Of a stretch of 17,893 nucleotides of DNA, positions 8,421 to 13,343 are shown piece after piece; positions within the stretch are counted from its first letter, which is position 1, and every line of letters begins with the position of its first letter. Source of the stretch: Escherichia phage vB_EcoS-716R1; the sequence record ON470621.1. One strand, given 5' to 3'. The notes below the pieces were generated by a model. That model made no database searches, was not told the origin of the DNA, and worked only from the letters and a program-made list of their open reading frames with translations. The position numbers and the translations under genes are program-made.

Positions 8421-9639
8421 CGTTCTTTTCCTCTTTGCCTTTCGTATCTTTAAAGTTATTCAACGGATTTGCTGCATTTACGCTGACCAGCATTTCATCC
8501 AGACCGTCAACCGGGTTCATATCCTCAAATGCCCTGGCTTCATTCCGACTCATCCAGCCATCTGTAATGGCAAAGTGATAGAACTGCGCACGCTCCTGTG
8601 GGGTCCCACGGAGCAACCCCGTGAGGTTAAAACGAACGTAATACCCGGCAGCCCGTTCTGTACGGGTAAACAGGCGACGGTTAAGCTCCTGCTCCCAGTT
8701 CGCAACCCAGGGCATCATCGTGTAGCGAACAAACTGAATCGCCTGCTGCGTAATATTCGAAAATGTGGCTTTTTCCAGGTCATTAATCATGTGCGCCGGG
8801 ACATTAAAAATCCCTGCAATCATCGACCTGTTCAGCTTGGTCATATCAATGATCTGAGCATCCACCGGAGAAACTGTCAGAGCGCGGTAATCCAGTTGCG
8901 CAGGCAACAGCATGGTTTTATTTTCCTGGCTGCGAAGCGCTGTCACCGCCCGCTGCCACATATTTTTAAGCCTGCCCCAGCTCTGTTCGTTCAGTTCATT
9001 TTTCACAGAAATAATACCGGCAGGACGGGCATTACCGTTAAAAAAGGCGCTGGTATACTGCTGGCCACTCATTCCCATACCAATGGTTTCAGCATGCTGC
9101 ATGATCGGGCTCAGTCCCATTTTCTGATTGTTTCCCAGCGCCCTGATATGGATCATGTCGTCCGGACTTACCGCAAATGCACCCTCTTCGTTATACACCC
9201 CGTAAGTATGACGCCCACCGGTGTTAAGTAACGTGGTTTCCCATGGCATACAGCATTCAAGGCTGGTAACCTCTCCACGACGATTACGTTTTACCCACGT
9301 ATAACCATTGCCCCACCCCAGCACATGACGCTGCTTCAGTTCCCGCCACTTATAGCTGGTCTGCCAGGCATTAGGTTCATCATGAACGAGCCAGAACAAC
9401 GGATGATCGCGTGCAGGCTGAACATGCTCATTCGTTTTTCGCATCACATGCAGGGGCATCTGAGCCACACTGGATGAAATAACATAAATACAGGCATAGA
9501 CAGCAGCCAGCTTCATGGATGTTTCCGGACTGACATACACATCCCGGGCAAAAATATTATCCGTCTCAGCGGCCTCTCCGGTTACCGGAACCGAGGGATT
9601 TTCCAGAGACTCACTGCGAAACAGAGCATCAAGAAGCAT
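8413..9639 (-). CDS. Portal protein (HK97 family)
   Basis: 408-aa ORF between the large terminase and the prohead protease. Size, position and sequence character fit the HK97-family portal. Confidence 0.9.
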   Translation of the reverse strand: MLLDALFRSESLENPSVPVTGEAAETDNIFARDVYVSPETSMKLAAVYACIYVISSSVAQMPLHVMRKTNEHVQPARDHPLFWLVHDEPNAWQTSYKWRELKQRHVLGWGNGYTWVKRNRRGEVTSLECCMPWETTLLNTGGRHTYGVYNEEGAFAVSPDDMIHIRALGNNQKMGLSPIMQHAETIGMGMSGQQYTSAFFNGNARPAGIISVKNELNEQSWGRLKNMWQRAVTALRSQENKTMLLPAQLDYRALTVSPVDAQIIDMTKLNRSMIAGIFNVPAHMINDLEKATFSNITQQAIQFVRYTMMPWVANWEQELNRRLFTRTERAAGYYVRFNLTGLLRGTPQERAQFYHFAITDGWMSRNEARAFEDMNPVDGLDEMLVSVNAANPLNNFKDTKGKEEKNDE

Positions 9640-9786: not shown

Positions 9787-11544
9787 TCACAGAATTAACA
9801 GGTCCTCATCAGGATCAAGCGTGGACAGAAAGTCATTCACGCCCCCGCCATTTACCAGAAAGCGGCTCATGGCCGTAAAAAGCGCAACAGGGCCGTCGAT
9901 TTTGGCTTCAGGCGTGGATTTATTCGGGAAGATGTTGTCGTTTTTGTCCGGTTTTACCGTAACGTTAGACATCATCCAGTTCATGACCGGATGATTGCTG
10001 TGATGGAAACGCCCGGCATAAACCAGTGATTCCGTTTCCTTCATGGCCTCTGACAGATTGCGGACCGTCTGCGGAACCTCCACCAGCGGTATCCCTTCTT
10101 CAGCCAGTGCCAGGCTGAACTGCATTGCGCTCCACGGGTCAAATCCCAGTTCCCTGAGGTTTTCACCGCCAATCCATTCCAGTAAGTCACTTTTTATCTG
10201 AGCATGATCGATAACATCACCATCCGTCAGGATGAGCTTATCCATCTCCGCCCACTTCCGGTAAAGTTCTGCCTGCTGCCGCGAGCATCGCTCCAGCCGT
10301 CCTTCCGGAAGCCAGAATTTAAAATCAGCATGAACATGTCCGTTATCGGTTCGCCAGAGTTTTGCCGCCGCACAGATATCAATCTTATGAGCAAGGTCGA
10401 CGCCGACCCACATGGGATATGTTTTCAGCTCATGTTGTGGAGCAATGTATTCGCACTTCTCCCACTTAATCATATCCATCCAGGCAGATTCGGCAGTGAC
10501 CCACACATTCATGTGTTTGGTAAAAAAATTCACCCGCGCAGAGACCTGCTCCTTCGCTTTTTTCGCCAGACGACGCAGATCATCCCAGCGTTTACAGATG
10601 CCCAGGCCAGGATTCGCTTTCTGCCAGACCGTTTCATCAAACGGATCATCTCCCTCATCGAGCGTGTAAATGATCGCAAAGTAGGAGTCGTCTTTTACCG
10701 CGCCCTCCACGTCGCTGTTATAGCCTCGCAATACCTTAATGGCGTAATCGCGCTGCTCGTAGCAAATCCCTTCCTTGTTAAAGCCAGCCGTGGTGATGCC
10801 AAATAACAGAGACTGCAGACGGGCACCGGTTGCCGTTTCCAGAACGTCCCACACGTCACGGGTTTTATGAGCATGCAGCTCATCAATAATGGCGCAGTGG
10901 ATGTTCAGACCGTCCAGGTTGTTTGCATCCGAGGAAAGCGGTTCAAATTTTGATGCGCTCTGCTCCTGGTAAATCGCCAGCTTGTTGAAATCAAACAACC
11001 GCCCGAGTGTCGACCGGGCTTTTCTGACCATATTTTTGGCGTCTTCAAACACAATTCTGGCCTGGTCACGCGTGGTTGCGGCTGAATACACCTCAGCCCC
11101 GCCTTCACCATCTGCCCCCGTCATATACAGACCGATACCCGATGACAGGGTTGATTTTGCGTTTTTACGGGCAACTTCGTTGTATGCTGTCCGGAACCGG
11201 CGCACCATCACCGGGCGTCCACTGCCATCGCTGCGCATGACAACTTCCCCGGTTTCTTCATTCACCAGCGGAATGACAAAACCAAAAATATTAATGAGGA
11301 TAAACACATGCCAGTCCATCAACTCAATGGGCTGACCTGCCAGCGCCCCTTTCACATGGGGTACAAATTTGTAGAAATTAAGGATGTGCTGTGCACGGGG
11401 TTCACTGAAATAAATCCCCCGCTCTTCGCCGTACTTCAGATCATCAAGAAAACGCTGGCAGGCCAGACGGACAAATTCGCCAGCAACAATTTCTCCTGCA
11501 ACAACACGTTCGGCGTAGCGGATCCCGTCAGCCACTTTTGCCAT
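9787..11544 (-). CDS. Terminase large subunit (Terminase_1 family)
   Basis: 585 aa with RRFRTAYNEVARKNAKST (ATPase P-loop region) and EVYSAATTRDQA motifs, and a C-terminal nuclease-like region. Start overlaps the small subunit stop. Confidence 0.9.
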   Translation of the reverse strand: MAKVADGIRYAERVVAGEIVAGEFVRLACQRFLDDLKYGEERGIYFSEPRAQHILNFYKFVPHVKGALAGQPIELMDWHVFILINIFGFVIPLVNEETGEVVMRSDGSGRPVMVRRFRTAYNEVARKNAKSTLSSGIGLYMTGADGEGGAEVYSAATTRDQARIVFEDAKNMVRKARSTLGRLFDFNKLAIYQEQSASKFEPLSSDANNLDGLNIHCAIIDELHAHKTRDVWDVLETATGARLQSLLFGITTAGFNKEGICYEQRDYAIKVLRGYNSDVEGAVKDDSYFAIIYTLDEGDDPFDETVWQKANPGLGICKRWDDLRRLAKKAKEQVSARVNFFTKHMNVWVTAESAWMDMIKWEKCEYIAPQHELKTYPMWVGVDLAHKIDICAAAKLWRTDNGHVHADFKFWLPEGRLERCSRQQAELYRKWAEMDKLILTDGDVIDHAQIKSDLLEWIGGENLRELGFDPWSAMQFSLALAEEGIPLVEVPQTVRNLSEAMKETESLVYAGRFHHSNHPVMNWMMSNVTVKPDKNDNIFPNKSTPEAKIDGPVALFTAMSRFLVNGGGVNDFLSTLDPDEDLLIL

Positions 11545-12026
11545 CAGTCTCTCGCTTTTAAAAGCTCTGCCAGCGGATCAACATCATCCGGTCCGGCGGT
11601 ATTTACTTTCGCCCGGCTTGCCGGTGACATACCAAACTCTGCAAGCATCGCCCGAATCCGCTTCCAGGCATCAGCCTTCATCGCAGCAGCCGGGTGTGCC
11701 TTGATCAGCACATCGCCATTCTGCGTTTCCGTGCGGTAGGTATAACCCTCAACATCGAGTATTTCGCAGTGATGCCGGTATTCGGTGTAGGCTTCCACCA
11801 GTAACTCGAGCGCACGTGCATCGAGCTGAGAAATGATCCCTTCCGCATTCAGCTCTTCCGCCATTCGCCTGAACCAGTACTTCCCCTGCGCCCCTAAATG
11901 TTGCGGAATTTTAGGGAGACCTTTTTCATCCTTTTTAGCGGTTTTTTTGGAGTCTTTAACTGGCCGCTTTGAGGGGTTACCTCGTATCAAATGCAGGCGT
12001 GGCGGGGTTTTCGGGGGTCCAGACAT
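11544..12026 (-). CDS. Terminase small subunit (P27 family)
   Basis: 160 aa with a basic N-terminus (PPKTPPRLHLIRGNPSKRP), placed directly upstream of and coupled to the large subunit. Confidence 0.8.
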   Translation of the reverse strand: MSGPPKTPPRLHLIRGNPSKRPVKDSKKTAKKDEKGLPKIPQHLGAQGKYWFRRMAEELNAEGIISQLDARALELLVEAYTEYRHHCEILDVEGYTYRTETQNGDVLIKAHPAAAMKADAWKRIRAMLAEFGMSPASRAKVNTAGPDDVDPLAELLKARD

Positions 12027-12173
12027 AATCGATTTTACCTATCAATCATTTAATCACATTCCAAAAAAAAGTTTTCGAACCTGCGGCGATGCGAGGAAAG
12101 GTCAGGCGGCGGTACTGAGCAGCCAGGGTTGCAGAGATTTGACCTGCCCCTCCCCTACAGATGGGAACTGTTA

Positions 12174-12524
12174 TCAATTGAGGCGTTCGCGCGCTGTTTT
12201 TGCTTTATGACAGGGCCAGCACAGACTCTGCAGGTTACTGTCTGCATCCGTGCCACCATGAGCTTTCGGAATGATGTGGTCCACAGTTCTGGCTTCAACG
12301 GCTCTCCCATTGCGCAGGCAGTTCTGACACAGATGATTATCACGCTTCAGTATGCGCGCACGTATGGCATCCCATTTCGAGCCATAGCCACGCTGGTGGC
12401 GGCTCAGTCCGCGTTGATGCTGTACCCATCCTTCGCCACGATGTTTATCGCAGTAACCAGAACTGTCTGTGGTTGTACCTGCACATCCACGCTTACGGCA
12501 GGCGCGTGGGATTCGTGGGGGCAT
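12174..12524 (-). CDS. HNH endonuclease
   Basis: Cys/His-rich with an HNH-like core (DHIIPKAHGGTDADSNLQSLCWPCHKAK). Start set at the ATG at 12524, which follows a GGAG; the track ORF begins further upstream at 12623. Confidence 0.8.
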   Translation of the reverse strand: MPPRIPRACRKRGCAGTTTDSSGYCDKHRGEGWVQHQRGLSRHQRGYGSKWDAIRARILKRDNHLCQNCLRNGRAVEARTVDHIIPKAHGGTDADSNLQSLCWPCHKAKTARERLN

Positions 12525-12644
12525 ATGTACTCCAATGAAGAAGCCACCGACATAGCCTCCTCCATTCATAGTGAAACTATTTTCATCTACCCAGTAATGA
12601 ATTCTTTGTAGAGTTGTGATCAATACAACTCACTAATGGAGAGG

Positions 12645-12681
12645 CTTGTCCAACACGTTGGACAAGTTTCCTGTTTGATTT
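12645..12681 (+). terminator. Perfect 10-bp inverted repeat followed by a T-rich run (terminator or operator)
   Basis: CTTGTCCAAC-AC-GTTGGACAAG followed on the plus strand by TTTCCTGTTTGATTT, in the divergent region between HNH and the plus-strand small ORF/bor unit. Confidence 0.3.
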
Positions 12682-12746
12682 ACTGGACACTATAGAAGGA
12701 CAGAATGCCTTCATCACTCGAATAACATCAATTAAGGAGGTTCAAC

Positions 12747-12869
12747 ATGTTTCATTCCACAAATCATCAGGCTGTAATTATGGCTGCATCAGCTTGTGCC
12801 ACAGACCTTTTCCGCTTCACTTTGAGCCTGATTCATTTCTACCTGACCGGCTCGCCTCTATCTTTTTAA
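12747..12869 (+). CDS. Small ORF (40 aa) with near-consensus Shine-Dalgarno
   Basis: TAAGGAGG, 6-nt spacer, then ATG. Encodes MFHSTNHQAVIMAASACATDLFRFTLSLIHFYLTGSPLSF. Same strand as and upstream of bor. Confidence 0.35.
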   Translation: MFHSTNHQAVIMAASACATDLFRFTLSLIHFYLTGSPLSF

Positions 12870-13049
12870 TCCCCGCTTTATCCAAATTGCATTGCCAGAA
12901 TGCCGACAACAGACTGACATTCAAATCCTGACTACCTCCAATAGGCTGAGCATCCACCTATATAGTTTTAATTTTCATCAATCCATTTAACTATCGTTTA
13001 ATTGTTGTCACATAGGATTCTGCCGTTTTTAACAATGCAGGATAATAAG

Positions 13050-13343
13050 ATGAAAAAAATGTTGTTTTCTGCCGCTCTGGCAATGCTTATTACAGGATGT
13101 GCTCAACAGACGTTTACTGTTGGAAACAAACCGACAGCAGTAACACCAAAGGAAACCATCACCCATCATTTCTTCGTTTCGGGAATTGGACAGGAGAAAA
13201 CTGTTGATGCAGCCAAAATTTGTGGCGGCGCAGAAAATGTTGTTAAAACAGAAACCCAGCAAACATTCGTAAATGGATTTCTCGGTTTTATTACTTTAGG
13301 CATTTATACTCCACTGGAAGCGCGTGTGTATTGCTCACAATAA
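13050..13343 (+). CDS. bor: Bor/Iss-family outer-membrane lipoprotein
   Basis: MKKMLFSAALAMLITGCAQQTFTV...ETITHHFFVSGIGQ...VDAAKICGGAENVVKTETQQTFVNG...IYTPLEARVYCSQ is a near-match to lambda Bor as I remember it, with an LITGC lipobox. Convergent with Rz, as in lambda. AGGA Shine-Dalgarno before the ATG. Confidence 0.9.
   Translation: MKKMLFSAALAMLITGCAQQTFTVGNKPTAVTPKETITHHFFVSGIGQEKTVDAAKICGGAENVVKTETQQTFVNGFLGFITLGIYTPLEARVYCSQ

Follow-up and report, generated by a model that had tools for sequence, protein, structure and literature searches.

Where would the ends of the virion DNA of Escherichia phage vB_EcoS-716R1 fall, and does the short non-coding interval between its HNH endonuclease and small terminase genes hold the cohesive-end (cos) site at which that DNA is cut for packaging? 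The window considered here, a stretch of 17,893 nucleotides from sequence record ON470621.1 given as one strand, reads antisense to the phage late operon, and the genes discussed lie on its minus strand unless otherwise stated. A first-pass annotation, made from the letters of the window, had noted that an HNH endonuclease gene adjoins the small terminase gene (terS) on the same strand, with a 147-bp non-coding spacer (12027-12173, minus strand) running from the HNH stop to the terS start codon, and had proposed that cos lies between the two genes, that the mature ends map inside the spacer and that the window contains the junction of those ends. Its coordinates are exact, and homology to phage ends defined elsewhere supports its placement of predicted ends: cos very probably lies in the spacer, so that the right and left virion ends would meet within the window. 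The gene arrangement HNH-cos-terminase is textbook for HK97-like phages and finding it here is ordinary; what the analysis adds is the prediction of the ends to the base and the three-block anatomy of the site.

The placement draws on three phages whose ends have been defined in other work. The HK97 record ends in ...CAAATGAC CGCCGCCAAA, with ATGAC before CGCCGCCAAA, and restarts at GTTTGAATTT (it begins GTTTGAATTTAACGCTAACCCGATTTTTTTAG). The base numbers of this record fit the cleavage and small-terminase sites as published: cleavage falls between -1 and +1, and the small terminase binds +15 to +29, contacting T16 and the C:G pair at 21, with the A-tract at 24-29 essential (PMC11331095). The HK97 ends are 10-nt 3' overhangs (PMC9410871). 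For SfI, run-off sequencing of virion DNA left a 10-nt gap, TGCCCGCCCC, relative to the prophage (PMC3636060), and because this is a gap and not an overlap we read the SfI ends, too, as 3' overhangs; in the SfI record ...CCGGAC TGCCCGCCCC are the last bases and GTCGTTTTTTT the first. The phiP27 record annotates CGCCCGCCCC as cos-site, directly after GGGAC. When the spacer is aligned with these cos regions, as the first-pass annotation had recommended, CGCCGCCAAA, TGCCCGCCCC and CGCCCGCCCC each line up, column by column, with CGCCGCCTGA of the window (12102-12111, minus strand, packaging sense), which is the predicted 10-nt 3' cohesive end, and a G-rich block and a core sequence are shared at the same spacing. 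This column-for-column agreement supports a cos site between the HNH gene and terS, with the minus strand predicted to be nicked between 12102 and 12101 and the plus strand between 12111 and 12112, the latter in the sequence CG|GT. That the nicks fall at exactly these bases seems likely, if less assured than the location of cos in the spacer.

The anatomy of the site emerged from three sets of sequences: a first spacer alignment of the window with phiP27, SfV, SfIV, HK97, mEp235 and several Klebsiella, Morganella and Escherichia phages; a second of 32 distinct sequences from a scan of species-representative genomes; and a pattern scan of IMG/VR for the block downstream of the cut, which gave 116 distinct sequences. 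The upstream element of the site, the G-rich block GGGGAGGGGCAGGTCAAATC (G-block; 12136-12155, minus strand), is conserved in HK97, SfI, SfV, SfIV, phiP27, mEp235 and the Klebsiella, Morganella and Proteus prophages, whatever their small-terminase type, and in HK97, SfI, phiP27 and the window GGTCAAA (GATCAAA in HK97) stands 30 bp from GAC, or from TAC in the case of the window. About 20 variable bases separate the G-block from the core, G(G/T)ACCGCCGCC (12105-12115, minus strand), which is followed by TGA. The left flank of the predicted cut is GTAC (12112-12115, minus strand), which joins the CG at the start of the overhang to make AC|CG; neither G(G/T)AC nor AC|CG varies in the relatives (32 genome-scan and 116 IMG/VR sequences), while SfI has AC|TG. 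ACCGCC is likewise invariant at a fixed offset in both sets, and G[GT]ACCGCC stands at a fixed offset in 116/116 of the distinct IMG/VR sequences that carry the downstream block, among which the window's version of the core, GTACCGCCGCCTGA, is the second most common. In the 17.9-kb window ACCGCCGCC occurs once, against 0.17 occurrences expected.

The third block, CCTTTCCTCGCATCGCCGCAGGTTCGAAAAC followed by T8 and GG (12061-12101, minus strand), forms the first 41 nt of the predicted left end and consists of CCTYTTYYCRCATCGCCGCAGGTTAGAAAAC and then a T-tract (12063-12070), with its most conserved part, CGCCGCAGGTTxGAAA, at 12073-12088. Its offset from the core is fixed at 29 nt in every locus, and majority-base conservation reaches 0.96 in CGCCGCAGGTTxGAAA and 0.92 in the core, as against 0.80 for the third base of each of the first 20 codons in terS and 0.61 for the linker that separates G-block and core. 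The block was found only with the small-terminase type of the window (mEp235, Klebsiella, Morganella, Proteus, Fraca and CharmingMan), and the sequence downstream of the cut tracks that type: CGCCGCAGGTTAGAAAAC-Tn with the mEp235 type, a T-tract followed by ACCCGCGAAA in phiP27, SfV and SfI, and CTAACCCGATTTTTT in HK97. At the other side, the distance between the HNH gene and terS grows to 350-890 bp in several relatives, and since the extra DNA always lies upstream of the G-block, the insertion point marks the left limit of the functional site. In Escherichia coli STO_Bone1B (locus L052, 51-800) the upstream DNA is replaced by an unrelated segment carrying a 171-amino-acid open reading frame on the opposite strand, and the conserved unit still starts directly at the G-block. 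Inserts of 350-890 bp between the HNH stop and the G-block were seen in loci L052, L021, L042, L044, L045 and L048.

Other functions that the spacer might have served were looked for as well. It contains no sigma-70-like promoter, no terminator on the minus (coding) strand and no Rfam match; its repeats are limited to short pairs attributable to chance, and its single-strand fold is not unusual (z = 0.61). The lack of promoter, terminator, Rfam match and unusual fold fits a DNA site that the late transcript crosses. Between the T-tract and terS lies one match, TATCAATCATTTA (12040-12052, plus strand), to the integration host factor (IHF) consensus WATCAANNNNTTR, the single match in the window against 0.74 expected window-wide; in the 32-sequence alignment its conservation stops at the E. 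coli lineage, and it is a weak lead only.

The closest competitor to the predicted nicks keeps cos in the spacer and shifts the cut by a few bases, or lengthens or shortens the overhang to 9-12 nt, on the ground that this small-terminase type may position the nuclease differently. The window's type does differ from those of all three phages with defined ends, the HK97 overhang is given as both 10 and 12 nt within one paper, and relatives differ in the three or four bases with which the predicted overhang finishes (TGA, TAA, TAG, TTA, CAA), so that only its left edge is strongly constrained. Against such a shift, the three phages, which represent two other small-terminase types, are cut at the same alignment columns with 10-nt overhangs, the G-block lies 30 bp from GAC in all of them, and a chimeric join in the record of phage Fraca, described below, falls at the predicted +1 to within 3 nt. 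We regard a displaced cut as unlikely, though it is the strongest of the alternatives considered here, and keep the nicks at 12102/12101 and 12111/12112 as the working prediction.

How such a site might be used can be sketched from the order of its parts. The late transcript, like the concatemer, would run from the HNH gene through cos into terS and then the large terminase gene (terL). The P27-family small terminase would recognise the block that directly follows the cut and is peculiar to its lineage (12061-12101, CGCCGCAGGTTCGAAAAC and the T-tract), and would thereby place the HK97-type large terminase, and with it the HNH protein, at the core GTAC|CGCCGCCTGA|CC. Nicking of the two strands at staggered positions would then yield 10-nt 3' overhangs, the left virion end starting at 12101 and running down into terS and the right end finishing with CGCCGCCTGA, 62 bp after the HNH stop. 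The G-block, 30 bp upstream and present in HK97 too, is part of the cos site as well.

The roles of the blocks can be assigned with differing assurance. The downstream block is likely the small-terminase binding site, a cosB-like candidate, because it changes with the small-terminase type; the site mapped in HK97 likewise lies downstream of the cut. For the G-block and the core, which are common to all these phages including HK97 with its unrelated small terminase, the simplest reading is that they are read by the conserved pair of large terminase and HNH protein, and from this we infer that the G-block is a candidate docking or termination element for one or other of them, comparable to cosQ. 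As to which nuclease makes which nick, zinc-ribbon HNH enzymes encoded beside cos and terminase genes, a group with N.phiGamma and the enzyme of Geobacillus virus E2 (GVE2) among its members, are reported to nick CG|GT, or AC^CG (Xu & Gupta 2013, PMC3592412), and the predicted plus-strand nick falls exactly in CG|GT. This specificity of its relatives suggests, tentatively, that the HNH protein makes the plus-strand nick and the large terminase the other; a division of the two nicks between nucleases has already been proposed for HK97 (PMC11331095). Extended to the whole phage group, the conjecture would be of a three-part cos of fixed geometry, in which the HNH protein cuts the plus strand at AC|CG, the large terminase cuts the other strand 10 nt away and the G-block docks the pair of large terminase and HNH protein and not the small terminase. 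This is a doubtful generalisation, yet if true it would explain both why the HNH protein is indispensable in vivo and why the overhang has an invariant left edge and a drifting right one. The G-block, its 30-bp phasing, the AC|CG step and the downstream block offer a cheap experimental handle on which nuclease nicks where and on the role of the upstream element.

The proteins encoded around the spacer fit such a site. The HNH endonuclease gene (12174-12524, minus strand; 116 amino acids) starts at an ATG at 12524, preceded at 6 nt by the Shine-Dalgarno sequence GGAG, and stops at the TGA at 12174-12176; a longer open reading frame reaching up to 12623, called mechanically, was rejected on the ground that the homologues are all 116 amino acids long. 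Its product matches Pfam HNH (PF01844, E 3.3e-16) over the full length of the profile (1-47 of 47). Its sequence contains an N-terminal zinc ribbon (C9, C14, C25, H28), and the translation an intact beta-beta-alpha-metal domain (C66xxC69, D82-H83, N97, C102xxC105-H106) in which the metal-binding histidine is kept; the best solved relative is the GVE2 HNH nicking endonuclease (5h0m; residues 1-114, E 1.1e-14), aligned at full length. Downstream of the spacer, terS (11544-12026, minus strand, ATG at 12026) encodes a small terminase of the P27 family with 160 amino acids, which matches Pfam PF05119 Terminase_4 (E 1.7e-25, 89.7 bits, cut-off 24.7) and NCBIfam TIGR01558 sm_term_P27 (107.5 bits, cut-off 45.6). 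It is followed by terL (9787-11544, minus strand), whose 585-amino-acid product of the HK97 type has ATPase and nuclease domains (TerL_ATPase and TerL_nuclease, PF03354 and PF20441) and a sole relative in the PDB, the HK97 large terminase (6z6d, E 1.3e-35). Further along the minus strand come the portal (8413-9639; Phage_portal PF04860, 3e-100), a prohead serine protease (about 7822-8238; Peptidase_S78 PF04586, 4e-27) and an HK97-fold major capsid protein (6590-7807; Phage_capsid PF05065, 2e-70), and this run of portal, protease and capsid genes downstream (6590-9639) marks the module as one of HK97 type. A terminase of the lambda type (gpNu1/gpA) was rejected, as the Pfam scan gave only PF05119 and PF03354 plus PF20441.

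Comparison with HK97 itself shows how far the likeness goes. There, as in the window, the HNH gene is the last before cos and terS the first after it, and the large terminase, portal, protease and capsid belong to the same families; the large terminase gp2 is 28% identical to the window's over 466 amino acids (E 8e-41, BLASTP). The HK97 cos shares ACCGCCGCC and the G-block ...GGGGATCAAATC with the window at the same 30-bp spacing, and its small-terminase site downstream of the cut needs an A/T tract, a feature matched by the T-tract of the window's block. The differences are that the cut lies 319 bp beyond the HNH stop in HK97 and 62 bp beyond it in the window, and that HK97 gp74 is 37% identical to the window's HNH protein over the catalytic core only and is without the N-terminal zinc ribbon. 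According to the accounts of Kala et al. 2014 given in two later papers (PMC13595911, PMC9410871), gp74 is a packaging factor that is needed for, or stimulates, cleavage of cos by terminase, shown for gp74 only. With HNH adjacency, an HNH motif, a gp2-like large terminase, the head genes and an alignable cos all found, the module of the window is, as known here from its sequence, an HNH-assisted HK97-type cos packaging module; it departs from HK97 proper in that its small terminase is of the P27 family and not gp1-like.

Closer in gene order are the Stx2e phage phiP27 and the Shigella phages SfI, SfV and SfIV, which convert serotype; they all run from an HNH gene through cos to a P27-family terS and terL. 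In phiP27 the protein L34 is 90% identical to the window's HNH protein, and phiP27 and SfI have the G-block, the 30-bp spacing to GAC and then a 10-nt C-rich overhang. The small terminases of phiP27 and SfV belong to the same Pfam and TIGRFAM family as the window's, yet are only about 20-24% identical to it, and the SfV large terminase is 36% identical; the overhang of phiP27 and the Sf phages reads (C/T)GCCCGCCCC as against CGCCGCCTGA in the window, and their downstream sequence is a T-tract followed by ACCCGCGAAA as against CGCCGCAGGTTCGAAAAC-T8. The DNA similarity to phiP27 (about 82%) stops inside cos, between the G-block and the core. From the core onward the window resembles mEp235 (Nochtlivirus), whose small terminase, large terminase and HNH protein are 73%, 87% and 74% identical to the window's and whose spacer, like those of the Klebsiella, Morganella and Proteus prophages, has the same three blocks including the downstream one. 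A mosaic junction thus lies in the linker (12116-12135), with the HNH side phiP27-like and the core, terS and terL mEp235-like, and this switch puts the point at which the lysis/HNH arm was recombined with the head arm inside the packaging site.

Phage lambda provides a more distant parallel. Its cos has 12-nt 5' overhangs, and its cosQ-cosN-cosB array follows the same logic of a nicking site with a downstream small-terminase region and an upstream element, although no sequence similarity was found between the spacer and lambda cos. Lambda uses IHF, and the window has the one IHF-consensus match between the T-tract and terS described above. No HNH factor takes part in lambda (PMC9410871).

A number of points limit, or weigh against, the reading of the spacer as an HK97-type cos cut at the predicted bases, and they differ in what they touch. 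No physical mapping of ends was found for this phage or for any with its small-terminase type. Deposited sequences gave no proxy for such ends: among 120 IMG/VR loci, most of them prophage-derived, no contig starts or ends at the predicted cut; the mEp235 record is uninformative on ends because it is linearised at the terS start codon, and a full-text literature search with the overhang sequences returned unrelated primers only. The small terminase gave no BLASTP alignment with HK97 gp1 and an hhalign probability of 0.1% (17-sequence profile), and gp1 has no Pfam match where the window's protein matches PF05119; the two being not detectably related in sequence, the HK97 binding geometry is transferred by analogy only. 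For a single-sequence AlphaFold2 (AF2) model of the window's protein (pLDDT only 69), Foldseek yielded no PDB match below E 0.29. HK97 gp74 has been reported to be non-specific (PMC3592412), which makes the assignment of one nick to the HNH protein speculative. The closest deposited phage record is labelled a partial genome. Finally, the E. coli lineage of the window has changed parts of the spacer that mEp235 and the related prophages carry: it has GGTTCGAAA in place of the otherwise invariant GGTTAGAAA, it has lost the GGGGTCCCC palindrome after the T-tract, and its terS Shine-Dalgarno sequence is weaker, AGGTA in place of AGGAG.

These last points bear on a second alternative, that the site is intact in sequence but belongs to a cryptic prophage which no longer packages, so that this copy would have no virion ends at all. 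A 211-bp query across the spacer (11990-12200) matches 890/5426 complete E. coli genomes, almost always in the chromosome, and many such prophages are defective; to this may be added the partial state of the identical phage record and the weakened terS Shine-Dalgarno sequence. The region is, however, 100% identical to a sequence deposited as a phage (Escherichia phage vB_EcoS-813R8, ON470619), the packaging, head and tail open reading frames in the window are all intact and of full length, and the cos blocks hardly vary between E. coli copies that have diverged; the three lineage changes, being fixed across those copies, look like a variant and not like decay. Loss of packaging is in our view improbable, somewhat more so than a displaced cut, and a functional cos in the spacer remains the preferred reading.

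The distribution of the arrangement speaks to whether the neighbourhood of HNH gene and terS is fortuitous. Scanning the small-terminase protein against one genome per bacterial species gave 31 loci, spread over one Pseudomonas assembly and more than 25 Enterobacterales species, and 31/31 of these loci with this small-terminase type have a co-oriented HNH homologue (63-81% identical) upstream; the adjacency is therefore not chance, and the constancy of position and orientation is unlike the distribution of a mobile homing endonuclease gene. That the HNH protein is a free-standing homing endonuclease lying by chance beside terS, with the packaging site elsewhere (for example in 12525-12936) or packaging by headful, is accordingly very improbable and was rejected: the closest phage records (e.g. 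ON470619) do name the product 'homing endonuclease' and a conserved non-coding stretch does exist upstream of the HNH gene, yet homing endonuclease genes are sporadic where this gene keeps its place in every locus, the spacer blocks are more conserved than synonymous sites and align with the virion ends of HK97, SfI and phiP27, the large terminase clusters with the HK97 cos terminase, and gp74 is, in the accounts cited above, a packaging factor. One genome, that of Symbiopectobacterium purcellii (NZ_CP189882.1), contains five copies of the HNH-cos-terS module (L044-L048).

Three deposited phage relatives are anomalous at the predicted cut. The record of Escherichia phage Fraca (LR597645.1), a virion-derived assembly with the same small-terminase type, starts (1-131) with a 127-nt fragment of its own terL (...HVHADFKFWLPEGRLEKCSRQMAELYRKWAEMDKLIL). 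The microhomology CCT links this fragment to CCTCTTTTCACATCG..., exactly the column at which the left end is predicted to start (+1), and the other end of the record, on the right, carries the cos region in full. The join is probably an assembly chimera at a free genome end and as such lends circumstantial support to the predicted +1. Escherichia phage Evi (LR597642.1, about 781-911), 96-98% identical to the window, is without the equivalent of window positions about 12071-12252, which comprise the 3' part of the HNH gene (from codon about 90), the G-block, the core and most of the downstream block, and has in their place the 5' part of terS, copied in inverted orientation and joined at a T-run, so that its annotation shows two 'terminase small subunit' coding sequences; the likely cause is a fault of assembly at cos, which reads from virion DNA do not span. 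In Escherichia phage CharmingMan (PP925830.1, 492-513), compared with the near-identical prophage L018 (from 1107), 17-22 bp with the core are exactly inverted (TTAGGCGGCGGTCCTTTGGCGC as against GCGCCAAAGGACCGCCGCCTAA) between flanks that are otherwise near-identical; the nicking site may truly be inverted in this phage, or the inversion may be an end-related artefact of assembly. The anomalies of Fraca, Evi and CharmingMan all centre on the same few bases, a coincidence that is not proof.

The practical value of predicting the ends to the base is modest. The prediction covers a prophage family present in about one sixth of complete E. coli genomes, would help to orient and close phage assemblies, two deposited relatives being visibly mis-assembled there, and would be useful in the design of experiments on the packaging of cos-plasmids or satellites.

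On the other side of the HNH gene, the Pfam scan found the Rz, lysozyme and holin genes upstream. The interval of about 410 bp between the HNH gene and bor (12525-12936) is without a convincing gene and shares 85% identity with the DNA between Rz1 and HNH in Shigella phage SfIV; it holds a hairpin with a 13-bp stem (12641-12670) and a 40-codon open reading frame on the plus strand (12747-12869), which is preceded by AAGGAGG and has no NCBIfam match. Beyond it, the bor lipoprotein gene (13050-13343, plus strand) is oriented opposite to the late operon, and together with its upstream region (12935-13343) it is 100% identical to phage lambda isolates; the GC content of the bor region is low (0.39-0.44), as expected for a moron inserted between the lysis genes and the HNH gene.

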